Assembly (NCBI GenBank): GCA_017553685.1
Contig: JAFZKH010000002.1
Location: forward strand, 44,141 to 108,140
Length of the DNA stretch: 64,000 nt
Source: Bacilli bacterium
GTDB lineage: Bacteria > Bacillota_I > Bacilli_A > RF39 > UBA660
Direction: 5' to 3'
Shown: in pieces, positions 41,913 through 64,000 of the stretch
Numbering within the stretch: position 1 is the stretch's first letter
Layout: each line of letters begins with the position of its first letter
Notes under the pieces: model-generated
Seen by the model: the letters and a program-made list of their open reading frames with translations, nothing else
Databases searched by the model: none
What the model was told of the DNA's origin: nothing
Translations under genes and position numbers: made by a program

Positions 41913-41972
41913 ATGTTATAATTTTATTAGTATTGATAATAAAAATAGGGTATCAATTTGGAGGTATTTGTT

Positions 41973-44900: not shown

Positions 44901-47900
44901 TTTAGAATAGTAGTAACTGATGGAGCTGGTAATGAATCAGAACAAACAGTTACTGCATCAACATCTCCAGTTGAACCAATATGTCAAATTATTTCAGTTG
45001 ATGGTGTTGATTTAAATCCTGATGATTATATGCCATTCACATTATTAGAATATGCAATTGAAGATTCTCATTGTGATAATAAATGTACAATTCAAATGTT
45101 AAAAAGTACAAATGAATCTGTTGAAATTCTTAATACTCAAGATATTACATTAGATTTAAATGGTAAGACTGTAGCAGGTGTTCTTCCTGGATATACAGTT
45201 AATAACATGGGTGAATTTACATTAATAGATAATGGAACTTCAACTGGTGGATTAATTAATGGTAATGGTATAGCTGTTTACAATAACGAAAATGCTAAAT
45301 TTACTATGGGTGAGGGAAGTTCTGATCCTACTACTGATGGCCTTGGTAGAACAGTTTCTATCACTGCTCCATATGTATTTGGTGATTCATATGGTGTTTA
45401 TTCAGAACATGATGCTTTATTCTCATTCTTTGATGGTAAAGTTAGAGGTACAAATGCTATTCAAGGTGAAGTTAATGAAACAGAGTATTTATACAATGCA
45501 ACTTCATCTCAAGTGAATGATTATGAAGAAGTTATCTTAGCTATTCAAACTGAACCAGAAGCAAGAATTAATAAGAGTAAATATTATTCAAATATTAATG
45601 TTGCTACTGTAGATGCTAAAGGTGGTACTTCTGAAATTCAACAATCACAAGATTCGTTCTTAAGTGGATTTACACATGTAGATACTGATCCTATTATTAA
45701 TGTTGAACAAGTTAATCCAAATGGATTCCCATTTGTATATGATGCAGAAAACGATATATTAAAGTCTGGTAATCAATATTATGGTTCTATGGCATTCACT
45801 GAAACAATCATAGATTTAACTAATTATGCTGAAGATCAAGTGTTTGAAATAGAATATTATGTTAATCCTAATGTTGATGGTTCAAAAGGCAATTATAATA
45901 TTCAAGTATATCCAATAACTGATGATAATGTTATTTTATCATCTGCTGTATATACAATTTATAATAATGATAATTTAAGAGCATATAGATTAACAGCTGG
46001 TCGAAAATATAAAGTTTCAATTTCATATTTACAACCTGTTAGTCTTGTAAAGGCTGAATATACTGATAATGGATATGGTTTAGAAATTCTTCCATATTAT
46101 AATTCAATACCTGAATCAAGATTAGTTATTACAAGAGCTTCTCTTCACGTTGAAGAAAGAACTAAAACAGATGAAGAATTAATTGATGGAAATAATAAAG
46201 CAGTTGGATTCTATTATGATCCTACAACAGATACAATTAGATCAGATAGTCAATATGATAAGACCTCTGATTCTGCATATGCTTATGGTTATTATGAATT
46301 AGACTTAACTAATTATGAAGGCGAATATGAAATTAATTTAACAGCAAGTCTAGAAACATATGGTAATAGTTATGGATGTGCATATATTACAGAAGATAAC
46401 TATAATAACACAAAAGATTGTTATGCAAATTCTACTAATAAAATGCTTGTTAACTTCTATTCTTATTCTTCTTCATCATATGATACAGAACCTTATACAG
46501 GATATCCTTTAGGATACGATATAGTAGGTCCTTATACTGGTTATAGAACTCTTCAAGGTGGTAAGAAATATTATCTTAATTTAGTTTATTTAAAATATAA
46601 CTTAGAACGTAGACCTGAAAAAGAAGGCTTCATAGAAAATGATATAGCTGACCAATTTATAGTAAATAATATTAAGATTTATAAAACTGGTAATACGCAA
46701 GATATTGATATGGCTGCAGAAGTAAAAGGTACTGCTTTTGATTATGATAATCCATTTACATTTAATAATGTAGAATATTATGGACTACAACATTTTAATA
46801 ACAGTGATGTTAATGATTCATATATTAAAATAGACTTAACTGATGCTACAAGTGATAAGTTATTTGAGTTTGATAGATATGGTTCTACATATTATAACTA
46901 TTATTCAACTTATATAACTACAAATAATAGAGCTTTAACAGTTGATGAAGTTAAAACTAATAGAAGAGATTTAGCTCTAGTTAAAGACGATATATATGCA
47001 ACTGGTAATATATATCGTTATGATGATAATTCTTCATACTCTTATGGTGGAGGAACTAATAAGATTTATCTTGAAAAAGGAAATGTATATTATATTCACT
47101 TTAATGTAAGACTTGGTGCTTATGGTTATAGTTATCATAATGATGAGTATGATTGTAATTCAACAAGTGGATATTGTGGTGACATGATTAGTGGAATGAG
47201 ACTAAGAGACACAAGTAATACTATTCTAAATATGGGTAAATTACCAATAACTGTTGGTTCTGTTAATGTAGATAATTCTGAAGAAGAAAGTACTACAATT
47301 ACTCAATCTACAGGTGATGTAGTTAATCCAAACGGAATGATGACTGGTTCTTATGTCTGGGATTCCGATAGAAATATGTATGTATTAGCTCATCCTATTG
47401 AGTATTATCAAGCGGCAGGATGGACTGGTGAAATAGATTTAACAAATGAAACAGAGTCAAGTTTGTATCAATTCTTATATGAATATGATCCAACTGGTAA
47501 CTTATCTATATATGCATACTATACAGTTGATGAATTATATCCTATTAAATATACGAACTATGGTAGTGGTCCAGCATATCCAGAAGGATATAATTATATA
47601 AGTACAAATGGATATATAAATTTAGAGCCTGGACATAAATATTATTTATATGTAATGTCATATAGAAACTCGAGAAGTAATATTACGACAAATGCATTTA
47701 GGTTTGATAAAGTTGAGGGAGATAGAACAAAGGAATATACTAAGGGTGAAAAAGTAATCTCATTTAATGAAGATGTTGATGAAATTCAACTTCTTAAAAA
47801 TATTCAATTAAGTTCTACACTTGTATTTGATTATGATAAAGAAGTAGTATTAGACTTAAATGGATATAAGTTAACATCAAATTTAAATGGAGCTTTAATT

Positions 47901-50900
47901 AATAACTATGGTAAGTTAACAATTAAGGATAGTCATTATGAAAATCAAACTTCTGAAACTAAAACACATAGAGGTATTTTAGAAAGTACAGCAGGAAATA
48001 TTATTAAAAATAATATAGATGCTGAGTTGATAATAAAGAATGTTAGAATTAACATTGATACTAAAAGTAGATATGGTATCGAAAACTATGGTAATGTTAA
48101 ATTTGCAGATGGTTATGATTCTAAGATTTATGTTAATGCTCTTAGAGCATATGGTATTTATAATTATAGTAGTGGTAGAATTGATGATACTTCTGATTCA
48201 ATTGAAATTGTAATGAATTATCGTAATCAAGCTGAATTACCTTATAGTAGTTTATATAAGAGTTTATATGATAGTAATCAAATTAGTTATTATTCAAGTT
48301 ATATAAATACTGGTATTTATAATAGCGGTTATTATAATGCTTCTGGAATGAAAATCTCTGGTAAGCATGGTACTGGTTTTGATAATCAATCATCAGGTAC
48401 TGCTGTTATTAAGACTTCTAATATATCTGTAGATATTAATACATATGATAAGAGACTTCATGATGAGTATAGTGATTATAACTATAGATATGTTTATACA
48501 TCAAGATATGGTACTGATTATTATGCGACAATAACAGATTATTCTATAAAAAATGCTGGTACTATGACATTAATGAATGGTACAAATGTGGGAACTAGAA
48601 CATATAATACTGGTCAATTATTTGTTACTAATAGTTCTACACTTGACTATTTAGATAATGAGAATAAACTTGTTGCAAATAATTGGGCAGAAATGAGTAA
48701 TCTTTTAAATAAGAATTCAACTATTTTCTTTGATGTTTCATATGGTGTAACTAATCAAATAGATAACTATGGTGATTTACAACTTAGAAACTATTCTGCT
48801 ACTAGTTCAACTATTAATAATTATAGTGAACTTACAGGTGATTCCCTAAATCTAGGTACTATTAATAACGAAGGTAATATGAGATTTGTTAATGGTTCTT
48901 CAAAGTATGTTAATAATGCGGGAACAGCAAGAGCAGAAAACTTTAGTGTAATAGCTGATCCTGATGTTCATTCAGAAAATATAAAAAATAGTGGTATTTT
49001 AAATCTTACACAAAACTGTACTATTGGTGATTCAAGTAATCCTACTACATATGGAATACTAATGGTTCCAGCAGGAGGAGGAGCTCAATCTAACCCATAT
49101 AAACAAGTTGAATTAAATATGGGTATAGAAGGTACTACTAATAGTCCAAATATATATGTATATGGTAAGAATACAGGTATAGCAGGTAATTGTTATAGAA
49201 CTAAGAAAAATCCGGTTTATTCAATAACAGGTACTGGATCAAATGAACGTGTAAATGCTTCTGTTGGAGATTATTTCCAATATTTAAATGGCGATATCGA
49301 AGTATTAGATCAATCAAATTATGATCAAGATTTATGTGTATTTAATATGTATAATGGATATGTAACTTCAATAGATAATCCAAATACTCCTGTTAAAGCA
49401 GTAAGTATTCCAATTAATAATACATTAGATAATGAATATACATATTTTGGTGGAGGTTTAAGATTATTTGATAAAGATCAAGCTATTTCTACAAATTATA
49501 CTTCAAACGTTGTTAAGATAGGAAATACTGATTATATTTCTCTTCAAGATGCTGTTGATAGTATAACAACAGATACACCTACAACAATTGATATACTATG
49601 GTATACAGATGTGTCTAGTGTTGTAATTCCAGAAGGAAGAAATATAACACTTAACTTTACTCAAGATCATAATTCATTTGTATATGCTAGAGATGGTGGT
49701 ATTATCAATTATGGAAATTTAACAGTACAAGGTGCTGGTAAGTTAATAAATATTGGTAAATATGCATTTATCAACTATGGAACTATTACATTTGCTGGTG
49801 GTGATTATTTAGATAACTGGCAATATACTAGAATGGAACGTTCATTATTAAAGAACTATGGAACTGCAATTGTTAATGATGGTAGTATTTCTGGTCTAGA
49901 CTTAAATAACTTTGGTGAATTAACTATTAATAATGGTTCATTAAAAGGCACTATGGTTTATGGAACTGGAACTGATTCATTAACAACTATTAAGGGTGGA
50001 TACTTCTATGGTACATCTTCAGAAACTATTGATACATATCATGGATTTAAGACTGAAGTTAAGGAATATAAAACTAACCTTAGTTGGAGACATATGATTG
50101 AATTAAATCAAGGTGCAACAGCTGTCATTGATGGTTTAAATACTGAAACAGATACAAGATATACATATGTAAGACCTATTGCGCATCTTGATAATTCAAC
50201 ACTTATTTTTAAGAATAGTGTAATTAAAGAATTATCTAGTGAATATAATCCTATTAGATATATTTCTGCTGAATATAATTCTAATGTTATATTTGAAAGT
50301 GGTACTTATGAAAATATTTATATAGATGATAATGCATCTAAAGTTACTGTAACTGGTGGTAGCTTATCTGCTTATTCAAATGAGGATGTCAACTATAACC
50401 TAATGTTTTTACATGGTTCAACACCTAAAGCAGAAGTAACTGGCGGTGAATTGTATTCTAAGAAACGTGCTATTGGTTTATCTGATTTCACAAATGGTTA
50501 TGAAATTGTAATTGGTACAAAAGGTGACAAAGATGAAAATGATGAACTAATTGTATCTAAAACAAGTCCAAGTATAACTGGAGATATATATTCAGTTGCT
50601 AAATATGGTTCTGGTTCAGGTGTTGGTTATACAGGATTCTTTGATGGAATTTTAAAAGGTAGTACAGCAGCATCTGATATTAACTTTGATGAAATTGAAG
50701 ATGACTTTGAAATCATTGATGATACTGAAACATCTAAATTTACTAAGTATCTTGATCAAAAAGATCTAGTATATAACTCAACAACTGGAGTAACTTATAA
50801 ATCATTCCAAAAAGCATTTAGTGAAGCTACAAATGGTGATCAATTAGAGACTCTTAGAACTTATACAAATACTAAGACTACAGCAACAATTGTTATCCCA

Positions 50901-53900
50901 GAAACATCTAACTTTACATTACATATTAAACACGAAATAACTGTTAATAATGATACATTTATTGTAAATAATGGTACCGCAGAGTTTATTAGTTATCCTA
51001 CAACTGTAACTAATAATGTTTCTCATGAAGGTAGAATTAGTGTTAATGTAGCTAGTAAAGTGTTTGTTAATAATGGTACTTTAACATTAAAAGTTAACAT
51101 GGACGATTTAAAATCTGATGGAACAAATAGAGAAGTTATTTTAAATGAAGAAGGTGCAACATTAAATGTTGACCGTTCTAACATTACATCAGTTCAACGT
51201 GTAATTCTTAATAATGCTGGTACATTAAATATGAATGTAGGTGGTACTGAAAGTAATCATACTTCAACAATATTTACAATGGTATATGTTCCTGGTGATT
51301 CTTCATCAGTAGACTATGCTTTAGTAAATACTGGTACTGCAAATATTAATTACTTTACTTTAGATTCTCAATATATTAGACCAATTTTATTCAATTCAGG
51401 AAGAATGGTTGTTGATCATTCATTATTTAATCAAACTGGTTCAATAATTAATGTTGCTGCTACTCAAAGTGGATTAGAGTCTCCTGTATATAACTATAAT
51501 TACTTAGAAATTAAGAATAGTAATTTATATTATGTTCCTTCTAAAATTAATTATGATAGTATATATATGTATTTATATACCATTACAGGTTATTACTTTA
51601 GTAGTAGTCCAGAAAATACTTTAGGTAATAATGAAAATGCTACATTAATTCTAGATAATAACAGCATGGATACATCTGTTTTAGGTTTAGTTTACCAAGA
51701 TGGTTACATTAGATCTTATGGTTATCAAAATGATATTCATTATGCATTATTAAAAACTGTTCCTAACCAAGTTATAGTTAAGAATTCTGAATTACATAAT
51801 ATGGCTGGTGTTGTTCAAGCTAGAGGTTATGTAGATATCCAATTTATAGATAATACATTTAATATAAGAGATTTCTTTATTCAATCATTTAGTAAACGTG
51901 AATCATATAGAAATTATTATGATAATCGTGTATTAACAATTTATGCTCCACAACTAAAAGAAAGTGATGGTGCTAGTGAAAGTGTTGATATTAGATCTAA
52001 CGTTCTAATTGATGGTGGTACATATAATACTAATGCTTATATATATGTTGATAGAGATTATACAGCATTAACTAATGAAACATTAACGATAACTACACAA
52101 TCATACATGTTCCATATTTCACCATTAGAAATTAACTGTCCAACAGTTATAAGGGATGCTACAATTAATGTTTCTCCTTTAGCAAGTAAATCAAATCATC
52201 AATCTTATTACTCAGAATATGATGCAATATTTGAAGAATATATTAAAAAGATTGAAGGAAGACCTTCTTCATATCAAAATATGATTTACACAACAAGTAC
52301 ATGGAATTGGCTTGGTGCTGTTACAACATTCCAACCAGTAACAGTTATTAATTCTGAAATTAGTGTAACTGATGCTGATAGTGAAATGCCTGCTATTAAA
52401 GGTTATAGTGAAAATGCAATTATAACAATCGGAGAAAAAGATGGTAATTATAATGAAAGTTCTCCTAGATTATTCTCACAAAAGACTGGATATCCAGTAA
52501 GCTTCTATAGAAATCTTGGAGGTGTAAACTTCTATGATGGTGTTATTGAAACAGGAGCTAGTTATGGTATTCTTGTATATAATGAAATGGAAGATTTAGA
52601 TAAACATTTCTTAGATAAAGAAACTGATTATATTATTACTGGTACAAGTAAAAAGAGATATCTATCAAGAGAAAGCATTATTAAGAATGTTACTCAAGAT
52701 ATAGAATATAGTGATATTAATCAAGCATTTAATAGTGCTAATTCTGGTGATGAATTAGAAGTATTAGTTAATTATGTACCTACAGGTATTGAAACTTATA
52801 CAATTAATAGTAAAGAATTTACACTTGATCTAAAAGGTTTACTATTCACAGTTAATTTAGAGGTATCTAATGCAAGTGATATTTCAATTGTAGATACTAT
52901 TGGTGGTGGTAAAGTTTCAAGTGCTAAAGTTTATGACACATCAGAATTATCTATAAATAATAATTCTATTAATATTGATGGATACAATTCTTCGATAATT
53001 AATATTGCTCGTGAGAGTAAATGCACTATAAATATGCATGATAATTCAGTTTTAAATTTTGAAAATACTATTGTACCTAATGCACAAAATATAAACGCAA
53101 ATGTAAATACAGCTGCATTTATGTATGATGATTCTTCAATAAATATAACAGATAGTAAAATAGCTAGAGTAGAATTAAATGATAATTCAACATATGCATC
53201 AACTTGTACAACAGATGCTGATTTATATGTAGCTACATTTGATAATAATTCGACTGAAACAATAGAAATTTCTTGTGGTAGATATGGTGCTGGTACTAAT
53301 AACGGAAGTGTACATATTATAGGTGGTAAATACGGTGATTATAGTTCAATAGATAACTATGGTACAACAGTTTTTGATGGTGGTGGAACACACAGTATTT
53401 ATAACAGAGATGTTGGTATTGTAACAATAAATGATGGTACATTCTATAGAGTAAATAATGTTGGTCAAATGACTGTTAATGGTAGTAACATTACTGAATT
53501 ACGTGGTGGGGGAATATTAAATATTACAGGCGGTTATATTAAAGATATGATTAATGGTAGTACAACTACAATGACAGGTGGTACTATTGGAAAATATATT
53601 CATTCTGGAACATTTAATTTACTTGGTGGTAAACTTGGTATGCTTACTACTCAAACTGGTACTATTAATATTGGTGTTAAAGATGGCATTATAAATAGTG
53701 AAGAACCTGAAATTAATACTGAATATTACTATAGTGAAACACCATATACTGGATTAAGTATTCATGATGGAACTATACTTAACTTCTATGATGGATTTGT
53801 TATTGGAGCATCATCACCAGGAGCTATCACTGGTAAGATTAGTGATACTGAACCTGGTTATAAGATTGGTGTTGTAGATATAGGTGATGGTAAAGAAAAA

Positions 53901-54701
53901 GCTTACTTAACACCAATTACATATGATGATTCACTAGTAGCTATGGTTAATGGTATTAACTATAACTCATTACAACAAGCTGTTAATAAATCAGTTCAAA
54001 ACTGTACTTCTGGATCTACTTGTCCAAAAGTAACAATATTCTTAAATATTGAGTTAGATGCTGATTTAACAATTGCTAGTGGATATTCAGTAGATATTAA
54101 CTCTAATGGATTTAGTATTAGTACTAACGGATTTAATGTTGATCCTCATATTACTTTAGATGGAGCTGCTATAGAAGATGATACTCTTGGTGGTAATATC
54201 TTAAATAGTTTAAGAGGAATGCTTGGTTTTGATGAAACTGGTACTTCAGTATTAGTTTATGAAATGGCTGATGGTTCAGCATTAAGTTCAGAAAATCATT
54301 ATAGATTATATGAATATAATGGTAGTGACTATGACTTAGTTACTATGGAAAAAGGCGATGAAGTTGCTAGATATAATCCTGGTAAGGGAGTAACTAATAT
54401 GAAACCTATAAAAGGAAGATTATATTTAACAAACTTAGACCCTGGAAACTATAAAGTTTCTGATGATAATGGTAGTGAAGTAACATTTACTATTAATGAT
54501 GATGGAACTTTAAGTGGACATGTTAAAGAATATATTCCAAGTAATAATAAAATAGAATCAACTGGTGAAGCAAAATTACTAATTTCTATTCAAACTGGAA
54601 TAAGAAAAATTAACTATATGTTAATAGCAATTTCATTAATTGCAGTTTTATCTGTAATGTTTGTCTTAAAAAGAAAAAGTCAAAATAAAAATCTAGTTTA
54701 A
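41973..54701 (+). CDS. Giant (about 4,240 aa) cell-surface protein with signal peptide, CarboxypepD_reg/Cna-B-like domain, six or more Listeria-Bacteroides repeats, an Fn3-like domain, four tandem roughly 180-aa modules, a long parallel beta-helix region, and a C-terminal sorting-signal-like anchor
   Basis: Single uninterrupted ORF; the TGGAGG SD precedes the ATG at 41973. Domain motifs were read directly from the translation: GWYTDETL.../FCGWTKDG... repeats; repeated NYG/LDLNG beta-helix rungs; and a tail of IQTG, then a hydrophobic stretch, then KRKSQNK. Confidence 0.8.
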   Translation: MKKKRIGKVIAASLIVVLVAAIFGILKLSSVDKYKGLVTINKASLSSISTKLSANISDLSEDNNIEVKGYDEIDYNISYKLSEVPGERDVIINAKINENDQYATFKEVTGTDITSVLSADRKEITITLKNLPSNEEITSKVTMLIVNAPKGYTVRPSIRIKESTSDEYTTVAVRDVTVNTSSVQGTVIDEEGNRVPNIIIALKKNNQIIKETYTNSDGIYTLSDITPDTYSVVVNEENYEDLELNNLYIKDGNQLNLIVKKVFPYRIETNKYITKVELNNLGSKKDYLYNDVKLANIPVRKVNNLHGKIYYKITVQNTGEKAGIISSVKDELPEGLSFDEKLNSGYELKNGIIYNRNLEGIELSAGEQISDTLILTIENTDVAKTYINKVNARGELYEHVIYLLDGRTYKTLDVLEGETIDEPTVSAQNFSGWYTDETLTNKYKFELPVEKDLILYGVTAKKHIVKFNDKHPETLVETPYDEKEVDNGEPVTKPATDPEKEGYDFCGWTKDGVVWDFHTPVTEDLTLVSKYCIKSYKVEFYDKSASNGAEYEKIGDISKEYKSTLSNSEAPDLSNAWIGHNFLRWTTDQAGDTEYSFNTQIKENIKLYAQYSLQDRSFIFNDENRITEKFVKYGETVEAITDQGKDGHSFVHWSLEVNGQTPFDFSTPIYQTTTVYAVYQINQYHVIFNDTDPWTNVTEQYDDQIVNHGGNAIEPVEPQKEGHTFCGWKLNGNDYNFSTQVTDNITLDSCYTKNKVNVYFMNDTDIWETKEVPYADKVTAPLTSPTKEHKIFSYWSEDGITPFDYDTQIKEEKYLYSVFEDITPPIIAHQPLYWTNDKVLVTISHASPVLTFKYKVDDGAYEDYAGAFELSTNSTIVAKSLYEDTESEIVSHDVTNIDKLNPEIGDITFTPSQTTILISGTMTDNQSGIAQIRVYRDNTTSGTINGTVIDADLRDYTKTKDMNVVVSELEPDTEYTFRIVVTDGAGNESEQTVTASTSPVEPICQIISVDGVDLNPDDYMPFTLLEYAIEDSHCDNKCTIQMLKSTNESVEILNTQDITLDLNGKTVAGVLPGYTVNNMGEFTLIDNGTSTGGLINGNGIAVYNNENAKFTMGEGSSDPTTDGLGRTVSITAPYVFGDSYGVYSEHDALFSFFDGKVRGTNAIQGEVNETEYLYNATSSQVNDYEEVILAIQTEPEARINKSKYYSNINVATVDAKGGTSEIQQSQDSFLSGFTHVDTDPIINVEQVNPNGFPFVYDAENDILKSGNQYYGSMAFTETIIDLTNYAEDQVFEIEYYVNPNVDGSKGNYNIQVYPITDDNVILSSAVYTIYNNDNLRAYRLTAGRKYKVSISYLQPVSLVKAEYTDNGYGLEILPYYNSIPESRLVITRASLHVEERTKTDEELIDGNNKAVGFYYDPTTDTIRSDSQYDKTSDSAYAYGYYELDLTNYEGEYEINLTASLETYGNSYGCAYITEDNYNNTKDCYANSTNKMLVNFYSYSSSSYDTEPYTGYPLGYDIVGPYTGYRTLQGGKKYYLNLVYLKYNLERRPEKEGFIENDIADQFIVNNIKIYKTGNTQDIDMAAEVKGTAFDYDNPFTFNNVEYYGLQHFNNSDVNDSYIKIDLTDATSDKLFEFDRYGSTYYNYYSTYITTNNRALTVDEVKTNRRDLALVKDDIYATGNIYRYDDNSSYSYGGGTNKIYLEKGNVYYIHFNVRLGAYGYSYHNDEYDCNSTSGYCGDMISGMRLRDTSNTILNMGKLPITVGSVNVDNSEEESTTITQSTGDVVNPNGMMTGSYVWDSDRNMYVLAHPIEYYQAAGWTGEIDLTNETESSLYQFLYEYDPTGNLSIYAYYTVDELYPIKYTNYGSGPAYPEGYNYISTNGYINLEPGHKYYLYVMSYRNSRSNITTNAFRFDKVEGDRTKEYTKGEKVISFNEDVDEIQLLKNIQLSSTLVFDYDKEVVLDLNGYKLTSNLNGALINNYGKLTIKDSHYENQTSETKTHRGILESTAGNIIKNNIDAELIIKNVRINIDTKSRYGIENYGNVKFADGYDSKIYVNALRAYGIYNYSSGRIDDTSDSIEIVMNYRNQAELPYSSLYKSLYDSNQISYYSSYINTGIYNSGYYNASGMKISGKHGTGFDNQSSGTAVIKTSNISVDINTYDKRLHDEYSDYNYRYVYTSRYGTDYYATITDYSIKNAGTMTLMNGTNVGTRTYNTGQLFVTNSSTLDYLDNENKLVANNWAEMSNLLNKNSTIFFDVSYGVTNQIDNYGDLQLRNYSATSSTINNYSELTGDSLNLGTINNEGNMRFVNGSSKYVNNAGTARAENFSVIADPDVHSENIKNSGILNLTQNCTIGDSSNPTTYGILMVPAGGGAQSNPYKQVELNMGIEGTTNSPNIYVYGKNTGIAGNCYRTKKNPVYSITGTGSNERVNASVGDYFQYLNGDIEVLDQSNYDQDLCVFNMYNGYVTSIDNPNTPVKAVSIPINNTLDNEYTYFGGGLRLFDKDQAISTNYTSNVVKIGNTDYISLQDAVDSITTDTPTTIDILWYTDVSSVVIPEGRNITLNFTQDHNSFVYARDGGIINYGNLTVQGAGKLINIGKYAFINYGTITFAGGDYLDNWQYTRMERSLLKNYGTAIVNDGSISGLDLNNFGELTINNGSLKGTMVYGTGTDSLTTIKGGYFYGTSSETIDTYHGFKTEVKEYKTNLSWRHMIELNQGATAVIDGLNTETDTRYTYVRPIAHLDNSTLIFKNSVIKELSSEYNPIRYISAEYNSNVIFESGTYENIYIDDNASKVTVTGGSLSAYSNEDVNYNLMFLHGSTPKAEVTGGELYSKKRAIGLSDFTNGYEIVIGTKGDKDENDELIVSKTSPSITGDIYSVAKYGSGSGVGYTGFFDGILKGSTAASDINFDEIEDDFEIIDDTETSKFTKYLDQKDLVYNSTTGVTYKSFQKAFSEATNGDQLETLRTYTNTKTTATIVIPETSNFTLHIKHEITVNNDTFIVNNGTAEFISYPTTVTNNVSHEGRISVNVASKVFVNNGTLTLKVNMDDLKSDGTNREVILNEEGATLNVDRSNITSVQRVILNNAGTLNMNVGGTESNHTSTIFTMVYVPGDSSSVDYALVNTGTANINYFTLDSQYIRPILFNSGRMVVDHSLFNQTGSIINVAATQSGLESPVYNYNYLEIKNSNLYYVPSKINYDSIYMYLYTITGYYFSSSPENTLGNNENATLILDNNSMDTSVLGLVYQDGYIRSYGYQNDIHYALLKTVPNQVIVKNSELHNMAGVVQARGYVDIQFIDNTFNIRDFFIQSFSKRESYRNYYDNRVLTIYAPQLKESDGASESVDIRSNVLIDGGTYNTNAYIYVDRDYTALTNETLTITTQSYMFHISPLEINCPTVIRDATINVSPLASKSNHQSYYSEYDAIFEEYIKKIEGRPSSYQNMIYTTSTWNWLGAVTTFQPVTVINSEISVTDADSEMPAIKGYSENAIITIGEKDGNYNESSPRLFSQKTGYPVSFYRNLGGVNFYDGVIETGASYGILVYNEMEDLDKHFLDKETDYIITGTSKKRYLSRESIIKNVTQDIEYSDINQAFNSANSGDELEVLVNYVPTGIETYTINSKEFTLDLKGLLFTVNLEVSNASDISIVDTIGGGKVSSAKVYDTSELSINNNSINIDGYNSSIINIARESKCTINMHDNSVLNFENTIVPNAQNINANVNTAAFMYDDSSINITDSKIARVELNDNSTYASTCTTDADLYVATFDNNSTETIEISCGRYGAGTNNGSVHIIGGKYGDYSSIDNYGTTVFDGGGTHSIYNRDVGIVTINDGTFYRVNNVGQMTVNGSNITELRGGGILNITGGYIKDMINGSTTTMTGGTIGKYIHSGTFNLLGGKLGMLTTQTGTINIGVKDGIINSEEPEINTEYYYSETPYTGLSIHDGTILNFYDGFVIGASSPGAITGKISDTEPGYKIGVVDIGDGKEKAYLTPITYDDSLVAMVNGINYNSLQQAVNKSVQNCTSGSTCPKVTIFLNIELDADLTIASGYSVDINSNGFSISTNGFNVDPHITLDGAAIEDDTLGGNILNSLRGMLGFDETGTSVLVYEMADGSALSSENHYRLYEYNGSDYDLVTMEKGDEVARYNPGKGVTNMKPIKGRLYLTNLDPGNYKVSDDNGSEVTFTINDDGTLSGHVKEYIPSNNKIESTGEAKLLISIQTGIRKINYMLIAISLIAVLSVMFVLKRKSQNKNLV

Positions 54702-54758
54702 TAACTAGATTTTTATTTGCAAATAAAGTATAATAAAGTTTATAGGATGGTGATAATC

Positions 54759-56042
54759 ATGAGAAATCTTTTACCTGCAGATACTTATATAGTTGTTAAT
54801 AAAACTATTCTTAGTGATAATGATAGAAAGATTTTAACTATGCTTTATCAACCAATAATAGGTAGTATTAGTACAAACCTATATAATACTTTATGTTTAA
54901 ATTTAGATAAGAATGAATTTATGAGTGATGAATTTACTCATCATTCTTTAATGGTTAATAATAAAATTAATCTAGAAGATATATTAGAAGCTAGAGAAAA
55001 ATTAGAGGGTATAGGTCTTTTAAAGACGTTTGTAAAAGAAAAAGAAGATTCTAATTCATATGTATATGAGTTATTTTCTCCACTTAGTGCAAGTGAATTT
55101 TTCTCACATCCAATACTTAATATAGTTTTATATAATAATGTTGGTAAAAAGGAATATGAAAGATTAGTTTTATATTTTAAAGTACCTAGAATTAATCTTA
55201 GTGAATATGAAGATGTAACTAAGAGTTTTGATGATATATTCTCATCAGTACCATCATCTTCATTTATTAATAATTTAATAGATGTTAAAGAAGTATCTAA
55301 AAATAATTTAAAATTAAATTATAATTTTGATTTTGATTTACTTATTAGTTCATTTCCTAAGGAAACTATTAATGAAAAGACATTTAATAAAGAAAATAGA
55401 GAGTTAATAGAGTATTTATCATATATTTATAACTTAGATACATTAGAGCTAAAAGACCTTATTATTAGCTCTTTAAATGATAAATTAATGATAGATAAAG
55501 TACTTCTTAGAAAGAATGCTAGAAACTATTATCAATATCAAAATAATGGTAAATTGCCAACATTAATTTATCAAAATCAACCAGAATATTTAAGAAGTCC
55601 TGAAGGAAAAGATAGTAAGAGAGCTAAAATGGTTTATACATTTGAAACAACATCTCCTTATAACTTCTTAAAGAATAAATATAATGGTAGTAAACCAACA
55701 TCTAGAGATCTTAAATTAATCGAAGATCTAATGGTAGATGTAGGATTAAAACCAGGTGTAGTAAATGTATTAATTGACTATGCTTTAAGAGTTAATAATA
55801 ATAAACTTAATAAAGCTTTTATAGAAACTATTGCAGGTCAATGGAAGAGACTTAATATTGAAACTGCTGAAGGTGCAATGGAACAAGCATCTAAAGAAAG
55901 TAAAAGTAAAAAAGTAAAAGAAACTATCTATAAAAAGAAAGAAGTTAATTTACCTGAATGGTTTAATAGAGAAAATACTAAAGAAGAAATTAGTAAAGAT
56001 GAAGAGGATGAAGTAAAAAAATTATTAGAAGACTTTTCATAG
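54759..56042 (+). CDS. DnaB-like replication initiation / helicase-loading protein (Firmicutes DnaB/DnaD family)
   Basis: The N-terminal pattern LLPADTYIVVNKTILSDNDRKILTMLYQPIIGSISTNLYNTL is typical of Firmicutes DnaB. It lies immediately upstream of dnaI. A TTG at 54717 and an ATG at 54747 are alternative starts. Confidence 0.6.
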   Translation: MRNLLPADTYIVVNKTILSDNDRKILTMLYQPIIGSISTNLYNTLCLNLDKNEFMSDEFTHHSLMVNNKINLEDILEAREKLEGIGLLKTFVKEKEDSNSYVYELFSPLSASEFFSHPILNIVLYNNVGKKEYERLVLYFKVPRINLSEYEDVTKSFDDIFSSVPSSSFINNLIDVKEVSKNNLKLNYNFDFDLLISSFPKETINEKTFNKENRELIEYLSYIYNLDTLELKDLIISSLNDKLMIDKVLLRKNARNYYQYQNNGKLPTLIYQNQPEYLRSPEGKDSKRAKMVYTFETTSPYNFLKNKYNGSKPTSRDLKLIEDLMVDVGLKPGVVNVLIDYALRVNNNKLNKAFIETIAGQWKRLNIETAEGAMEQASKESKSKKVKETIYKKKEVNLPEWFNRENTKEEISKDEEDEVKKLLEDFS

Positions 56043-56051
56043 AGGTGTTAT

Positions 56052-56957
56052 ATGAAAGATATTAAAGATGCAAATATTAAAACTAAAAAGATTAATCTAG
56101 AAGCAGAATATCTAAAAGCTAAGAAAGATCCTAATTTTGTTAAGATTATTACTAGTTTAGATATAGATGATAAAGAACTTATGAAATATACTTCTAAATT
56201 AATGCAATGCGCTAATGAATTAGATAATAATGGTCATAAAGAAGATAAATCATATTCATATAATGAAGTTCCTGGTTTTATTCTTACACCATATGTAGTA
56301 GATGGTATACTTAATTTTAAATATGTTGCATGTAAAGAAAAAGAAGAAGAATTAGAGAATGCAGAATATTTAAAAAATGGATATAGATTTGAAGTTTCTA
56401 AAGATATTAGAAATGCTAAAATGAAAGATATATATACTGATGATAAGAATAGAGTACCACTTATTAAATATGTTACTAGTTTTATCAAAGATTATAAAGC
56501 AGGTAAAAAAGTTAAAGGTTTATATTTAAGTGGTAATTTTGGTACAGGTAAATCATATATTATATCTGCCATGCTTAATGAACTTGTTAAAGATGGTTAT
56601 AAAGTAGCTATGATTTATTATCCAGAATTTCTTAGAATTCTTAAATCATCATTTAAAACTGATTTTGATGAAGAATATGATTATGCTAGAAAAGTAGATT
56701 TATTACTACTTGATGATATAGGTGCAGAAAATATTACATCTTGGTCTAGAGATGAAATATTAGGACCTATTCTTCAATATAGAATGGATAATAATTTACC
56801 AACATTCTTTACATCTAATTTAAATCTAAATGAGTTAGAAACTCATTTATCAGAAAGTAAAAATGATGTAGATAAATTAAAAGCAAAAAGAATTATTGAA
56901 CGTATTAAATATTTAACAAATGAATTAACATTAATTAGTGAAAATAAAAGAAAATAA
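56052..56957 (+). CDS. dnaI: Primosomal helicase loader DnaI (AAA+ ATPase)
   Basis: Walker A GNFGTGKSYI, Walker B LLLLDDIG and a DnaC/DnaI-type C-terminus. Confidence 0.8.
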   Translation: MKDIKDANIKTKKINLEAEYLKAKKDPNFVKIITSLDIDDKELMKYTSKLMQCANELDNNGHKEDKSYSYNEVPGFILTPYVVDGILNFKYVACKEKEEELENAEYLKNGYRFEVSKDIRNAKMKDIYTDDKNRVPLIKYVTSFIKDYKAGKKVKGLYLSGNFGTGKSYIISAMLNELVKDGYKVAMIYYPEFLRILKSSFKTDFDEEYDYARKVDLLLLDDIGAENITSWSRDEILGPILQYRMDNNLPTFFTSNLNLNELETHLSESKNDVDKLKAKRIIERIKYLTNELTLISENKRK

Positions 56958-56975
56958 TTATTTTCAGGGTGGTTT

Positions 56976-58061
56976 ATGGAAAGAATACATGAGTTTATAA
57001 ATATTTTATTTAGTGATAATGTAGCTGGTAGTGTATATGATTTTTATAATGAAAACAGTGAATCTTTACGCCCTAAATGGAGAGATGAATACTTATTTTT
57101 AAAATATTATAGAGCAAATATTATTGATACTTATATTAGAGCACCTAAATCCACTAGAGATTTATTATTTAATAGTTTTAAAGATAATAATATAAATACT
57201 AGTTTGTTTAGTGGCGTAGTAGAAAATTTAAATTCATATATAGCTAAAGAGGGAGAAAGAATCTATCCTTGTGGTATAAGAGGATTATTTGATTATGCTA
57301 CTGATTCTTTATATGAAAAACTATGTAGAGATGATGAATCAATAATAGAAGCTATTATATCAGAATGTCATTTATTAACTATGGATGATGTTAAAGAGAG
57401 TAATCCTATAGTAACAGGTTATTATAAGTTTACTCCTGATGAAATAAAAACTTTAGAAAAGGCATCTTGTTTTCCAGCTATAGTTGATCAAGCTCATTTA
57501 TTATATGATGAAATGGGCCCTTCTAGAGAGTTATATTGTAATTATGAATTAATAGAAAATGATTTATTTAGAGAATATGCTTTCCATACTGATAATGATA
57601 ATGATGTATTTAATATAATTGATGCTAATGGAAGAATTATAAGATATTTCCAAGGAGATATTAGTTTTTATGATGGTTTTTTTTCAGATTTATTAATTCT
57701 TACTAAATTATATTTTATTTGGATATATCGCGAAAATGTTTTAGAAGAAGAACCTGATGATGAAGATGATACTTTTGATGAGTATGATGATGCTGAGAAA
57801 GAATCAATGATAGAAGATTTATTGAAAATTATTCAAGATATTCCAGAAAAAGAAAAAGCTGAAATTGTGTCTTATATGGATGGAGATCCTGAGTATGAAA
57901 GTATAAGCCCTAAAGCATATGAAAGAACAATGAAAAAAGCTATAGAATTTGCTTGGGATAAAGTACAAAAAGCATCTTGTCGATATTCAAGAAGAATGAT
58001 AGAAATGGCACAAGAAGATTATCAAAGAGTTGAAAAACTAATATATACATATAAGTTATAG
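56976..58061 (+). CDS. Hypothetical acidic protein, paralog 1, in the ytxB/ytxC position
   Basis: Soluble protein with an acidic patch (EEEPDDEDDTFDEYDD). It is a clear paralog of the next ORF. Confidence 0.55.
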   Translation: MERIHEFINILFSDNVAGSVYDFYNENSESLRPKWRDEYLFLKYYRANIIDTYIRAPKSTRDLLFNSFKDNNINTSLFSGVVENLNSYIAKEGERIYPCGIRGLFDYATDSLYEKLCRDDESIIEAIISECHLLTMDDVKESNPIVTGYYKFTPDEIKTLEKASCFPAIVDQAHLLYDEMGPSRELYCNYELIENDLFREYAFHTDNDNDVFNIIDANGRIIRYFQGDISFYDGFFSDLLILTKLYFIWIYRENVLEEEPDDEDDTFDEYDDAEKESMIEDLLKIIQDIPEKEKAEIVSYMDGDPEYESISPKAYERTMKKAIEFAWDKVQKASCRYSRRMIEMAQEDYQRVEKLIYTYKL

Positions 58062-58070
58062 AGGCCATAT

Positions 58071-59084
58071 ATGATAGATATTAATAAACTCATTAATTTA
58101 TTAAATAGAAGAGAATCAAATAAAAAAATTAGTAAACTATATAAAAAATATAGCAAAGATTTATTTAAAGAAGTTAGAAGTTTACCAAAATTTAGGGCAT
58201 ATATTAAGTCTGCAGTAATAGCAGATTTTAATGAATCACATGAAAGAGAAACAATAGATACTATGTTACGTAATTTAGAAAACACATCTATTTTCAGTGA
58301 TTATGTAGCAAATGTTATTTTTATGATGAATGCATCATGTTCAAAAGTTGGAGATAAAACAGGAAGAGTAACAAAAGATGAAATAAATGAATTATTTGAA
58401 TTTGAGGGTAGTTTAGATTTATTAGATTTAAATGATAGAGAAGATGAAATCCTTAATATAATTAAAGACATGAGTGGTTTTGTTACTTTTGATGAAATAA
58501 TAAGTGGTGACTATAAAAAAAGTAAGAATTTTAATGGTAATACTTTAACAGTTGGAGAAATTAGAAATCTTTTCTATGTTAAAATGATACCAGGTATAAC
58601 ACAATATATTCATAGAAAATATGATGATCAAGTAGATGGTGAAGTTCATTGCTTATTTCCTGATATAGAAGAATCATTAAAAAGATTTGCTTTTCATTCA
58701 AAAAGTTGTAGATCTTGTTTTTTAATAGTATTTGATGATGAAACTATAATCTCATATAATAATGGTGAATATAGATTCTTACCATATAAGTTTTCACATG
58801 TAATATATTTAACTAAGTTAGAAATATTAACATATTTAGCATATGGTGCTGATGATGATAATGAAGATATGGTTTTAAGAATGCTTGCAGATGATGGAGA
58901 ATATGCAAATACTAGTATTAGTGATATGGATGATGAATTGTTTGAGCAATTAACAAGATTCGCATATAACTATATTAGATCATTTTTAGATGAATTTACT
59001 TTTGAGTTTTCTGAAATTATGATTAAAGATGCTAAAGAAAAAATAGGTAAGTATAAAATATTATCATCTAAATATAAATTATAA
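58071..59084 (+). CDS. Hypothetical acidic protein, paralog 2 (possibly YtxC-like)
   Basis: It shares the blocks AFHxxxxxxxFxIxDxxxxIIxY and LTKLxxxxYxxxxxxDD(N)ED with the upstream ORF. Confidence 0.55.
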   Translation: MIDINKLINLLNRRESNKKISKLYKKYSKDLFKEVRSLPKFRAYIKSAVIADFNESHERETIDTMLRNLENTSIFSDYVANVIFMMNASCSKVGDKTGRVTKDEINELFEFEGSLDLLDLNDREDEILNIIKDMSGFVTFDEIISGDYKKSKNFNGNTLTVGEIRNLFYVKMIPGITQYIHRKYDDQVDGEVHCLFPDIEESLKRFAFHSKSCRSCFLIVFDDETIISYNNGEYRFLPYKFSHVIYLTKLEILTYLAYGADDDNEDMVLRMLADDGEYANTSISDMDDELFEQLTRFAYNYIRSFLDEFTFEFSEIMIKDAKEKIGKYKILSSKYKL

Positions 59085-59099
59085 ACTTATTTACAAATA

Positions 59100-59325
59100 T
59101 TAATAAAAGAGTTATAATTAACTTGTAAATCAATGAGGAAAGACATGATTTATATATTTGATTTATAGAGAGTTACCGGTTGGTGTAAGGTAATATGATA
59201 TATATAAGTTACTACTTTCTAAGAGGATTAATAAATCCCGGCATAGCCGTTATATTAATTAAGTAAACAAAGGATGGTACCGCCTAAATAGGCTCCTTAT
59301 ACCATCCTTTTTTTGTTTAAAAAGG
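59100..59325 (+). promoter_or_regulatory. T-box leader (Thr specifier) with terminator/antiterminator upstream of thrS
   Basis: An AGAGAG element, an ACC codon in the specifier region, the T-box core AAAGGATGGTACCGCC, and a terminator stem AAGGATGGTA/TACCATCCTT followed by T7. Confidence 0.7.
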
Positions 59326-59333
59326 AGGAAATT

Positions 59334-61094
59334 ATGATTAATATTAAAGAAGATGAAAGATTAAGTAGATTAAATCATTCATGTGCACATTTAATGGCAC
59401 AAGCAGTAAAACATTTATATCCAAATGCTAAATTCTGGGTAGGACCTGTTATTGAAGAAGGTTTCTATTATGATATTGATTTAGGAGATAAAGTTATTAC
59501 TGATGAAGATATTGAAGCTATTTCTAAGGAAATGAAAAAACTTGCTAAAGATGGAAAGAGAATTTATAGAGAAGAAATTTCTAAAGCAGAAGCTTTAGAA
59601 AAGTTTAAAGATGATCCATATAAAATAGATTTAATTGAAAGAATGGATGAAGATAATACAGTAATATCTTGTTATACTCAAGGAGACTTTACTGATTTAT
59701 GTAGAGGACCTCATGTTGACTCAGTTAAAGAGTTAAAAAACTTTAAATTACTTAAGTTTTCAGGTGCTTATTGGAAAGGTGATTCTAATAATAAAATGCT
59801 TCAAAGAATATATGGAGTATGTTTTGATAATGAAGAAGATTTAAATAATTATTTACAAGAATTAGAAGAAGCTAAAGAAAGAGACCATAGAAAAATAGGT
59901 AAAGAACTAGGCATTTATATGATGAGTGATCTAGTAGGAAGAGGACTTCCTATGTATTTACCAAATGGTTTCATTATGTGGAATGAACTTGAAAATTATA
60001 TTAGAAATAAAGAAATTAAAAGAGGATATAAACATGTTCAAACTCCACCTTTAGGTAATGTAAATCTTTATAAAACAAGTGGTCACCTAGAACACTATAA
60101 AGATGCTATGTTCCCAATAATGGAAGTAGAAGATGAAGAATATGTTTTAAGACCTATGAACTGTCCTCATCACATGGTTATATATGGAAATGATATACAT
60201 TCTTATAGAGATTTACCTTTAAGAATAGCAGAAATAGCTAGAGATTGTAGATATGAAGCTTCTGGTGCTTTAAAAGGTATAGAAAGAGTTAGATCTTTCT
60301 GCCAAAATGATTCACATATCTTCTGTACTTTAGAACAAGTAGAATCTGAATTTAAAGGTGTAGTAGATTTAATTCTTGAATGTTATAACGAATTAAATAT
60401 TAAGAATTATAGATTTGAATTATCTTTAAGAGATCCTGAAGATAAAGTTAAATATCATCCAGATGATGAAATGTGGAATAAAGCAGAAGATATGCTTAGA
60501 ACAGTATTAAATGATTTAGGTATAGAATATGTTGAAAAAATAGGTGAAGCTGCATTCTATGGACCTAAATTAGATGTTCAAGTTAAACCTGCAGTAGGTA
60601 ATGAAATAACATTATCAACTTGTCAATTAGACTTCTGTTTACCAGCTAAATTTGATTTATCTTATATAGATTCAGATGGTTCTAAGAAAACTCCAGTAGT
60701 TCTTCATAGAGCAGTATTTGGATCAATTGATAGATTTATTGCATACTATTTAGAAGAAACAAAAGGAATACTTCCTTTATGGCTTTCTCCAGTACAAGTA
60801 AATATAGTACCTGTTAATATGGAATATCATACTAACTATGCTAAACAAGTATATGAAGAATTAAAAACTAATGATATTAGATGTGAAATAGATCTTAGAG
60901 ATGAAAAGATGAATTATAAACTTAGAGAGTCTATTATTCATAAATATCCATTAACTTTAATACTAGGAGATAAAGAAAAAGATAATGAAAATATCTCTTA
61001 TAGAAGATATGGTTCTGATGAAACAATTACTGTTTCAAAAGAGGACTTTATTAAACTAGTTTTAAATGAAATTAAAAGCAAAAAAAGTATTTAA
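59334..61094 (+). CDS. thrS: Threonine--tRNA ligase lacking the N-terminal TGS domain
   Basis: HSCAHLMAQAV editing-domain zinc motif and class II aaRS motifs. The AAAGGAGG SD precedes the ATG at 59334. Confidence 0.9.
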   Translation: MINIKEDERLSRLNHSCAHLMAQAVKHLYPNAKFWVGPVIEEGFYYDIDLGDKVITDEDIEAISKEMKKLAKDGKRIYREEISKAEALEKFKDDPYKIDLIERMDEDNTVISCYTQGDFTDLCRGPHVDSVKELKNFKLLKFSGAYWKGDSNNKMLQRIYGVCFDNEEDLNNYLQELEEAKERDHRKIGKELGIYMMSDLVGRGLPMYLPNGFIMWNELENYIRNKEIKRGYKHVQTPPLGNVNLYKTSGHLEHYKDAMFPIMEVEDEEYVLRPMNCPHHMVIYGNDIHSYRDLPLRIAEIARDCRYEASGALKGIERVRSFCQNDSHIFCTLEQVESEFKGVVDLILECYNELNIKNYRFELSLRDPEDKVKYHPDDEMWNKAEDMLRTVLNDLGIEYVEKIGEAAFYGPKLDVQVKPAVGNEITLSTCQLDFCLPAKFDLSYIDSDGSKKTPVVLHRAVFGSIDRFIAYYLEETKGILPLWLSPVQVNIVPVNMEYHTNYAKQVYEELKTNDIRCEIDLRDEKMNYKLRESIIHKYPLTLILGDKEKDNENISYRRYGSDETITVSKEDFIKLVLNEIKSKKSI

Positions 61095-61112: not shown

Positions 61113-61158
61113 TATAATTTTATTATAGTGTAATAGTATAGGAAGGTAGGGTATTTTA

Positions 61159-64000
61159 TGAAAAAAACAAAGAAAAATAAGTATATACCATTTAAGAAAA
61201 CTATAATACCAGTATTATCAATTTTAATGATAATTGTAGCTATATTAATAATTGTTTATACATTAGATTATATGAAATTTAAAAAGGATCATGTGGAATA
61301 TAAAAACGAATATATGATTCACGTTATGTACTTAATTATGGATAAAGATGAAGTACCAGAAAATATAACAATGGATCAAACATTTAGTTATGATCCTGAA
61401 ATAGGTATTCAAGGAATTTTAGGTACATCAAACTCTATGGTTCCACTTACTAAAAAGGGTGATTATTTATATGTAGATTTAGATACATTTACTAATCCAA
61501 ATTTATTAGTTAATGAAACTGATTACGTATTTACTAAATATAGTTTAGATGGTGAATTAATTGATGGTTGTGAATACGATAAAGAAACTAATACTATTAA
61601 AGTACCAATTTCATACTTTAAAGAAAATAAAATACATCCTATACAATTAGAAATTCAAACATTAATGACAGAAGAAGATTTCCAAAATATGGAAACTGTA
61701 GTTAATGTTAAAAAATTTATTACTACTAAAACTATTATTAAAAATAATGCTGTAGTACAAGAAACTAGTATTAAATTAACAGGTTTTGGTTCAAAGAAAC
61801 TTAATAAAGATAATGTACATATTTATATGAATAATATGGAAGAAGAACTAGATGATAATATGTATAAAATTGTTGGTAATGAAATAAGAATCTTATTTCC
61901 ACCAGCACAAATTAGTAAACTAGATATTAAAGTAGATTATTCATTAAAAGGTGTATTTGCTAGGGAATATGAAAGCAATCCTAATGAGTTTGTTGCTATT
62001 CAAGTAGATGGACCTATTAATTTACATTTAAATGATACAGGTAGTTTTTCATTATCTGGTCCAGAATCTGGATCTAAAGAGATTAAATACTGCGGTGTAT
62101 ATTCAAATGATAACTGTTTATCAGATAATTCATGGAGCCCATCAGCAGCTAGTTGGACTTATACATATTCTGCATATCCTTCAAGCTATTATAGATTTGA
62201 TTCATCTTCATGGGATGTATTATATAACTTTAGTGTATATCTTGATTCATTAGTTAGTAAAACAGCATCTGGTATAGCATCTACATCAGATATGCCATCT
62301 CGTATAGCATTCTATTGCTTAAACCATAGTTATGGTTCAGGTAATAATGGTGCTCAAACAATGTATATGTCTTATAAAGTAATTGGAGAAACAAGTCACT
62401 CTGTTACAATTCATTATTGGACTACAAATGCATATAGATCTCAAGATGCACAAGCATATTTAAGATTTGAATGGGAAAATGCAGAAGTTGGTTTAAAAGT
62501 TAGAAAAGTAGATGACTCTGGTAATAATATTCAAGGACTTAGTATAACTGCTGTTAATATGGCAAATGCATCAGATACACAAACTGCTATTACTGATGCA
62601 AGTGGTATAGCAACATTCTCAAATTTAACTGATGGTGCTAAATATAAGTTCTATGAAGATTGTAATTCATCTATTACTGTTGCAGGTCATTCTAATACAA
62701 CATTAGCTGCTCAAGGAATATCTTGTGTATATCCATCAACTAATCCATTAAATAATGGTGGTTCTGGTTATACTCCAACAGAAGATTATGCTACAATGAC
62801 TCCTATATCAATGGAAAATATTAAATATAGACACTGTGTAACTGTTCATAAAACAAAAGGAACAGATAATAGAAATGAATCTGGTGTACAATTTCAATTA
62901 AGTGTACCTGCTGGAGTATGTAGTTTATATAATTCAGCATATACATCAGGTGCAGTATCTACTAATTCAAATGGTATAGTAACATTTACTCATTTAGGAT
63001 ATTGTAGCGGTAATGCTACAGTTAGAGTAACAGATACAACTCATGCAGCATCTGTTATTGGAGATAATCCTAGAACAGTAAGTTTTGTTAGATCTCAAAT
63101 TAAGTCTAAAGTAAATGGATTTAATTATAGAGGTGTAACTTATAATGCTGGTGATGAAATACCTGCAATGACAAATAGTGATTTTATTACTAATGAATCT
63201 GCAGGAAGAGTAGAGGAAATATGTCCTACTACTAATCAAGTAGAAGTTAGAGATAAAGATTATGTAGTTATGTGGACTAAGAAAGATATGTCTATTAATA
63301 ATGGACAATCATTAAGTAATGTTACATTTAATGTAAATCTTGGTAATACTCCTGTTAGAGTATTAACTACTAAAGAAAATTATACTGATACAAATAACGT
63401 AACAAAATTATGTTATAAATATACAACTGAAACTGGTAATAATACTACAATAGATTTAAAATCTGATGGTAATGGTGAAGTATGTATCTTCAATTTACCA
63501 AAAGCAGGTGATAATTATACAGTTACTGAAAAATCAACTAATGTATATTCACATAATCCAATAACAGTAACATCATCTGAAAACTATACAAATACTAATT
63601 ATTCAAACTATGAATATATAGTTGATTGGAATAAGAAAGAATTAACTGGTATTTCTACTTCTAATTCTGGTGGTAACTTAGCAGGTGCTAAATTTACTGT
63701 TAAAGATTCAAGAGGTAATACAGTTAGAACTAAAGCTACTAAAGAAACTAGATATGATAATAGAACTCCTGGAGTATCTAGATCATGTTATGTAGTAGAT
63801 TTAATTAATGCGTCTAATAACACTAATTCGGAATTTATATCTGATAGTGATGGTTATGTATGTATTGTAGGTGTTAATAAATCTGAAAACTATACTATTA
63901 CAGAAACTGATCCTGCTACTTATTATGGATATGCTAATAGTAGATCTATAACAGAAGAATCTAAATTAACATTTAATACTACTAATCCTAATCCAAAAAT
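61159..64000 (+). CDS. Large surface protein with N-terminal signal anchor and repeated Cna-B/SpaA-like (prealbumin-fold) domains; 3' partial, runs off the window
   Basis: By direct translation the frame is open from the ATG at 61159 to the window end. The ORF track omits it because there is no in-window stop. It contains repeated GLKVRKVDDSGNNIQGL...TDASGIATFSNLTDGAKYKFYE-type domains. The AGGAAGGTAGGG SD precedes the start. Confidence 0.7.

Follow-up and report, generated by a model that had tools for sequence, protein, structure and literature searches.

Our starting question was what fills the interval between dnaI and thrS in a 64,000-nucleotide stretch of DNA from an uncultured Bacilli bacterium (contig JAFZKH010000002.1; we refer to the whole stretch as the window). 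In B. subtilis, the gene order is dnaB-dnaI-ytxB-ytxC-thrS (PMC8208703), as stated in an earlier note on this DNA, made from the sequence alone. That note placed two open reading frames (ORFs) in the ytxB/ytxC position. Both were found, on the + strand, at 56976..58061 and 58071..59084, and the peptide blocks quoted from them are present. We call these genes A (361 amino acids, aa) and B (337 aa). Very probably, A and B are diverged members, of an A-type and a B-type, of a lineage-restricted family of soluble, mostly acidic proteins (~320-390 aa). The family occupies a swappable cassette, of one or two genes, positioned after dnaI.

The two proteins are related to each other. A single BLASTP comparison of A with B gave 27% identity across 260 aligned residues (E=3e-11). 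In a six-sequence alignment, homology is colinear over the full length, from the first methionine to the C-terminal ...YKL, and A and B each score ~335-344 bits against a profile of the family. We conclude from these alignments that A and B are true paralogs, as previously proposed. The same profile detects no further copies in the 64-kb window. Transmembrane (TM) segments are lacking, again as proposed; the maximum Kyte-Doolittle (KD) 19-mer score is 1.09 for one protein and 0.95 for the other. DedA-type YtxB was rejected as an identity for either protein, given these KD(19) scores, the lack of multiple TM helices, and no Pfam match to DedA (SNARE_assoc). Both proteins are acidic, with an isoelectric point (pI) of 4.44 and net charge of -34 for A, and a pI of 5.05 and net charge of -13 for B. 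The acidic stretches, said by the earlier note to be terminal, are in fact internal (residues 258-272 of A and 261-275 of B). They are followed by ~60-90 more residues of conserved helices, with the ends ...TYKL and ...KYKL. A long acidic insert, around residues 254-311 of A, is peculiar to A-type members.

What occupies the same slot in close relatives? Loci were fetched from GTDB genomes and metagenomes, using DnaI as the anchor, and contigs encoding family homologues were added. The labels L001-L056 denote dnaI/slot loci of relatives, and P0010 and P0040 denote family proteins. Ten relatives were obtained from the same genus, one of uncultured gut and rumen Bacilli, with DnaI 86-98% identical to that of the window. 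Pairs of an A-type and a B-type gene are present in L001, L002, L003, and L054, where DnaI is 96-98% identical. The A-type proteins at these loci share only 57%, 51%, 41%, and 42% identity with A, respectively. Identity of the B-type proteins to B is 44% (L003) and 51% (L054) when full lengths are compared; the values for L001 (60%) and L002 (63%) refer to the part present on the contig. Divergence of the two types is broadly parallel across the A+B loci, being least for L001 and L002, and most for L003 and L054. The intergenic gap is 8-10 nucleotides (nt) in six of six pairs. At L005, there is a lone B-type gene, 40% identical to B, beside what a deletion has left of an A-type gene (L005 positions 10929-11040). 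The remnant consists of 22 N-terminal codons and 16 C-terminal codons, the latter out of frame, and both parts are identical to P0010, an intact A-type protein of 388 aa seen elsewhere in metagenomes. This shows an A-type gene to be dispensable. In L006, L051, L055, and L056, the slot is filled by one gene, from clades other than those of A and B (27-30% identity to A or B), and L007 has a pair drawn from two further clades. The neighbour-joining tree is star-like, with at least five deep family clades used in a single dnaI-thrS slot.

The limits of this variation are sharp. In blastn comparisons with L006, L007, L051, L055, and L056, nucleotide homology of 86-90% stops at 56957-56965, corresponding to the dnaI stop codon. 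Homology to the same five loci, at 83-90%, resumes at 59009-59088, in the last 75 nt of B or at its stop codon. Across most or all of the interval between (56958..59087), which we define as the variable cassette, blastn found no nucleotide similarity to these loci. Substitution rates differ accordingly. For dnaI, comparison of the window with L001-L003, L005, L006, and L054 gave 0.008-0.03 non-synonymous substitutions per site (dN), 0.23-0.31 synonymous substitutions per site (dS), and a dN/dS of ~0.06. Among relatives with DnaI of 86-98% aa identity, dN is 0.015-0.09 and dS is 0.23-0.57. For slot genes, same-type alleles have a dN of 0.26-0.53, a dN/dS of 0.38-0.82, and a dS of 0.64-0.90, as estimated by NG86, which is unreliable for dS at such divergence in a 25% GC genome. 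These ratios indicate that the slot genes are still under purifying selection. Even so, dN in the slot matches or exceeds the dS of its neighbours. Hence, drift in place cannot produce the pattern, and the alleles must predate their host genomes. It follows that recombination or introgression has exchanged them between genomes. We conclude, from the sequence comparisons, that this is a recombining, strain-variable cassette between essential genes; the flanks stay alike and the cassette differs.

Fast evolution could also simply mean that few residues matter. A and B could then be weakly constrained, lineage-specific accessory proteins, such as an adaptor or regulator of replication initiation in the positional role of YtxC, that have no part in genetic conflict. 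Turnover would then occur via recombination among co-resident rumen or gut strains. We regard this as the main rival to our favoured reading, described below, and as almost as probable. It fits the operon position after dnaB-dnaI, a dN/dS that is high and yet below 1 (0.4-0.8), variation that is even along the sequence, distant family members in housekeeping neighbourhoods, and no signature of defence or phage. Conversely, slot dN is similar to, or above, neighbour dS, and nucleotide similarity is wholly lost while the flanks are ~90% identical. This exceeds neutral drift in place and requires long-lived, deeply diverged alleles. Furthermore, an adaptor specific for its partners should co-vary with DnaB and DnaI, which are 95-98% conserved, and the A-type gene has been deleted in L005. 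The earlier note had suggested a replication- or sporulation-coupled role for the pair. Such a role, as a conserved housekeeping function, is hard to square with alleles that differ by 50-75% beside DnaI proteins that are 96-98% identical. Nor does it fit easily with a relative that has lost its A-type gene, or with distant members encoded at unrelated positions.

In sister lineages, with DnaI 43-67% identical, other genes fill the slot after dnaI. YtxC was in the slot at none of ~40 other dnaI loci inspected. A second slot family is found directly after dnaI at 15 loci (L008, L010-L013, L015-L017, L027, L029, L030, L035, L036, L039, and L041). Where complete, its members are ~500-890 aa in length, and the majority of those scanned end in an RNB exoribonuclease domain, behind a long unannotated N-terminal region; the hidden Markov model (HMM) signal for RNB is lost in L008 and L017. 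This family is also fast-evolving, with 24-54% identity where DnaI is 70-76% identical. Like A and B, the RNB-domain proteins lie directly after dnaI, before thrS, and evolve much faster than DnaI and ThrS. Unlike A and B, they are large (500-890 aa) and have a recognisable nuclease domain, and the two families are unrelated (hhalign probability 0.07%). The idea that A and B are a detached N-terminal module of the RNB-domain proteins was rejected on the same comparison (probability 0.07%, E 0.69), and there was no HMM match at E<=10. In L028 (10870-12465), the slot encodes a 179-aa HNH endonuclease, identified by a weak match, and then a YhcG/DUF1016 PD-(D/E)xK nuclease. Finally, at L018, L019, L021, L023, and L025, dnaI is followed by two small ORFs (~97-107 aa and ~165 aa), and then a large ORF that replaces thrS. 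In L019, Pfam assigns the large ORF to dnaE (Pol III alpha), and its counterparts in L018 and L021 fall in the same cluster. Slot content is variable, with sharp boundaries, and nucleases are found there only in the distant relatives. We conclude, from gene content across these loci, that the dnaI-thrS slot acts as a hotspot in which fast-evolving accessory genes collect.

It is a general phenomenon that hotspots of accessory or defence genes, bounded by core genes, vary between strains. What is new here is placement in a replication-loader operon, together with the family that fills the site. The locus resembles defence hotspots in having content that is non-homologous or deeply diverged between near-identical core flanks, sharp breakpoints, a variable number of genes, and nucleases in the slot of relatives. 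It differs in that the site belongs to an essential replication operon and is not next to a tRNA or integrase, in that one family supplies all alleles within the genus, and in that known defence domains and hallmarks of mobile elements are missing. Around the cassette, a search for flanking repeats or att-like sites gave only short AT-rich chance repeats, and there is no integrase. This bears on the proposal that A and B form a module of selfish or addiction type (a toxin-antidote-like pair, for example, or another element) that resides in an essential operon and is spread by recombination. Cassette-like exchange of a sharply bounded segment lying between essential genes, paired genes with gaps of 8-10 nt, and homing-type nucleases in the same slot elsewhere are all as such a module would predict. 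Nevertheless, we consider it quite unlikely. The paralogs match each other in size, which sets them apart from known toxin-antitoxin pairs, loci with just one gene are common (L005, L006, L051, L055, and L056), and neither toxin, antitoxin, or nuclease domains, nor flanking repeats or an integrase, were detected.

We turned to the identity of the family. The reading of the locus as a ytxB/ytxC slot holds insofar as the equivalent position is taken by two soluble, acidic proteins that stem from a duplication and are diverging; likeness to YtxC is not supported. The Pfam search suggested by the earlier note, with the YtxC model (PF08812, 'putative sporulation protein YtxC', of Bacillus), and the corresponding NCBIfam models, matched neither A nor B (E<=1), nor any of 37 family members (E<=10). 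Hence, despite the location between dnaI and thrS, the analogy to YtxC is positional only. The comparison was made by sequence; to our knowledge, YtxC has no solved structure. The likeness amounts to the dnaI-thrS position, solubility, and a length of roughly 300 aa. The differences are that A and B belong to a family with no YtxC HMM match, confined to one uncultured clade, hypervariable, and dispensable. That A and B are extremely diverged, duplicated YtxC homologues is very unlikely. While B. subtilis ytxC has the equivalent position relative to dnaI and thrS, and encodes a soluble protein of similar size, all 37 members lack a match to either YtxC model at E<=10, the family is limited to its clade, and the slot proteins of sister lineages are unrelated. 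Synteny with Bacillus, and so the label of a 'ytxC slot', does not transfer annotation.

No other family gave a better account. For A, B, and the 37 members, there was no reproducible match to any model in Pfam, NCBIfam, PHROGs, or PADLOC. Sequence and profile searches of the PDB were both empty for the family, and comparison of the family model with BFVD structures returned no match. Several specific candidates were rejected. Among known anti-phage defence proteins (PADLOC-DB), six families each matched one member, with a best E of 0.0011 and no consistency between matches. For a phage or plasmid origin, tblastn gave no matches to phages or plasmids, and PHROGs, INPHARED, PLSDB, and BFVD were all without homologues. 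For the sigma-70 family (region 2, the ECF sigma helical bundle), there was neither an HMM match to Sigma70_r2/r4 nor a significant fold match. As to DNA mimics and anti-restriction proteins, the family showed no combination of strong family-wide negative charge with a mimic-like fold. Note that the median pI of the family is 4.9, and that certain members are near neutral. Within the window, no defence genes adjoin A or B. On these searches, the A/B family is previously undescribed and has no detectable relative.

The family is also small. A word-index search of 5.8 billion proteins recovered, for each paralog, only the query and two relatives; in databases, A and B are named 'MAG: hypothetical protein IKZ96_00965 / IKZ96_00970 [Bacilli bacterium]'. 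When 1.84 billion cluster representatives were searched exhaustively with a HMMER profile, 45 proteins were recovered; they are confined to one uncultured clade, and almost all are complete (317-395 aa). A final word-index search, using a deep alignment, added only P0040. Scanning the loci of GTDB species representatives with the family alignment gave no match. Distant members are encoded after a trmB-like gene, beside a pgi-like gene, and after a gene for a secreted GDSL-like protein. Since these sites are away from dnaI, the link to dnaI is specific to the genus.

Across the family, the conserved residues are E156, H174, Y177, D178, T205, N209, I214, Y224, G227, D228, R230, K244, L245, M341, and Y359. 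In 41 sequences, Y224 is invariant, G227 is conserved in 98%, H174 and D178 in at least 95%, and E156 and K244 in at least 93%. The conserved positions concentrate in a central block and the C-terminal helix. AlphaFold2 models, made with 6 sequences (pLDDT 80.8) or 37 sequences (pLDDT 90.3, pTM 0.81), have identical topology. In the model, an N-terminal bundle of ~eight helices is followed by a central alpha/beta block (strands at 178-235) and a long helix; next come a poorly ordered acidic linker, in A-type members only, and a C-terminal helical hairpin. The family is thus confidently predicted to have an alpha/beta architecture without a solved relative.

Could this be an enzyme with a new fold? 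Such a protein, for instance a hydrolase or transferase of nucleic acids or small molecules, might use E156, H174, D178, D228, R230, and K244, with A and B being partly degenerate copies. Strong conservation of H174, D178, Y224, G227, E156, and K244, all in the best-conserved central alpha/beta block, is consistent with this. Overall, we consider it unlikely. No catalytic family or fold was matched, and the extreme sequence turnover would be unusual for an enzyme. Moreover, consensus polar residues are replaced in many members, including A (S230 and D210) and B (E228 and Y229), and family-wide conservation is absent for C188 and H204. One may also ask whether A and B are genes at all. In a genome so rich in AT, they might be annotation noise or ORFs in decay, which would explain why the proteins are annotated nowhere other than as hypothetical proteins. 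This is hardly credible; full-length ORFs are intact in more than 40 clusters, dN/dS is below 1 between same-type alleles, motifs are conserved, a pLDDT of 90 was reached from just 37 sequences, and the genes have ribosome-binding sites and tight spacing.

Our favoured reading, which we put at a probability of roughly 0.35, is that the A/B family consists of non-enzymatic binding modules engaged in genetic conflict, most plausibly as guards, decoys, or excluders at helicase loading. Four lines of evidence point this way: the pattern of deep alleles, coupling to the operon, the nuclease-rich slot of relatives, and a precedent for DnaI as a target of phages, phage 77 ORF104 being a DnaI binder (PMC4887207). 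Likeness to ORF104 is conceptual only; biology centred on the helicase loader makes conflict at the loader plausible. In contrast to that small, phage-borne protein, A and B are chromosomal, ~340 aa in length, and without sequence or structural similarity to viral proteins. In our favoured scheme, A and B would be expressed jointly with the loader proteins DnaB and DnaI. Strain-specific modules would then act at the helicase-loading step that phages or mobile elements hijack. Diversity of alleles might be kept by frequency-dependent selection, and strains would exchange the cassette through homologous recombination within its conserved flanks, dnaI and the thrS leader. With their parallel divergence and a gap of 8-10 nt in all six pairs, A and B would act together, possibly as a heterodimer formed via the conserved C-terminal helical hairpin of the predicted structure.

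Several observations weigh against a role in conflict. The searches above found no similarity to known defence or anti-defence proteins, and no phage or plasmid copies. Distant members occur in ordinary housekeeping contexts, after trmB or beside the pgi-like gene, and so away from dnaI. Variation is spread over the whole protein and is not focused in one recognition region. The conserved polar residues E156, H174, D178, T205, N209, D228, R230, and K244 could equally mark an enzyme site. Finally, the benchmark genes dnaB, dnaI, and thrS are unusually conserved, and the unreliability of slot dS, described above, counts on the same side. A wider proposal is that the family represents a new-fold class of guards or decoys linked to the helicase loader, recognising or blocking the phage or mobile-element proteins that hijack loading, with balancing selection on deeply diverged alleles that recombination swaps between strains. 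This would amount to an unrecognised layer of immunity in genome-reduced gut Bacilli, and is doubtful. If the conflict reading were true, A and B would be the first known case of a hypervariable module, encoded by the host, that is dedicated to protecting or policing helicase loading, a step attacked by phages. A protein family and a fold without known relatives would be gained as well. Even with function set aside, the locus is a clean natural example of cassette exchange between two essential genes, and could help to tell strains apart, as a marker, in metagenomes from rumen and gut. Note that, as the hosts are uncultured, functional testing needs surrogate systems.

The neighbouring genes, all on the + strand, define how the cassette is embedded. 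The operon's first conserved gene is dnaB (54717..56042), encoding the Firmicute helicase-loading and DNA-remodelling protein DnaB, and this is part of the conserved left flank. The protein matches Pfam DnaB_2 (E 1.3e-12) and NCBIfam NF052657 (312 bits, 7e-93, under the model cut-off), and aa identity to close relatives is 85-96%. The helicase loader gene, dnaI, follows at 56052..56957, with a match to NF006505 of 258.5 bits, above the cut-off of 228; its stop codon is the left boundary of the cassette. Gene A starts 18 nt downstream of that stop codon. Gene B starts 9 nt downstream of the A stop codon, and has an AGAGG ribosome-binding site. No terminator-like site was found at the junction of dnaI with A. 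Hence, co-transcription of A and B with dnaB-dnaI is probable. The region's best sigma-70-like promoter, judged by consensus match only, is TTTACA-17-TATAAT (11/12) at 59090..59118, immediately 3' of the B stop codon and 5' of the thrS leader. From this arrangement, the dnaB-dnaI transcription unit most likely ends with A and B, leaving thrS as a separate regulatory unit.

The thrS leader (59124..59320) is in the conserved right flank, where nucleotide identity to relatives is 87-90% from 59070-59088 onward. It comprises a T-box (Rfam RF00230), matched at 59124-59300, and a terminator/antiterminator hairpin, an inverted repeat with terminator arms at 59259-59279 and 59300-59320. Since the T-box match (62.3 bits, E 2.5e-13) does not reach the Rfam gathering score of 93, default annotation would miss the leader. 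The sole Rfam match at the gathering threshold, in the whole window, is a single tRNA gene (4656-4727, +). The thrS gene (59334..61094) encodes a protein of ~586 aa, with 88-90% aa identity to relatives, in which a Pfam scan shows no N-terminal TGS domain. The true start is probably the ATG at 59334, with AGGAGG upstream at 59323-59328, and not the mechanically listed TTG at 59313, which sits in the T-run of the terminator. In three close relatives, the T-box leader is followed by an additional ORF of 192-216 aa, which precedes thrS and overlaps its start (L005 12335-12913, L006 12180-12830, and L054 8159-8746). The L005 and L006 copies are 76% identical, and that of L005 has no Pfam match. 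This ORF is absent from the window, where positions 59298 and 59334 nearly adjoin.

Beyond these genes, directly 5' of dnaB, the window encodes a surface protein of 4247 aa (41958-54701, +), with an N-terminal signal or anchor and a C-terminal TM anchor. Nucleotide identity of this gene to relatives is ~65-70%, where dnaB-dnaI is ~90% identical, marking a second fast-evolving region. On the other side, ~40 nt past thrS, another ORF begins (61137-64000, +); its product has a TM anchor at the N-terminus and is at least 954 aa long, as the ORF runs past the end of the window. In relatives, ORFs at the position after thrS range from 950 to more than 1900 aa. Hence, the dnaB-thrS block is sandwiched between two giant surface-protein genes.
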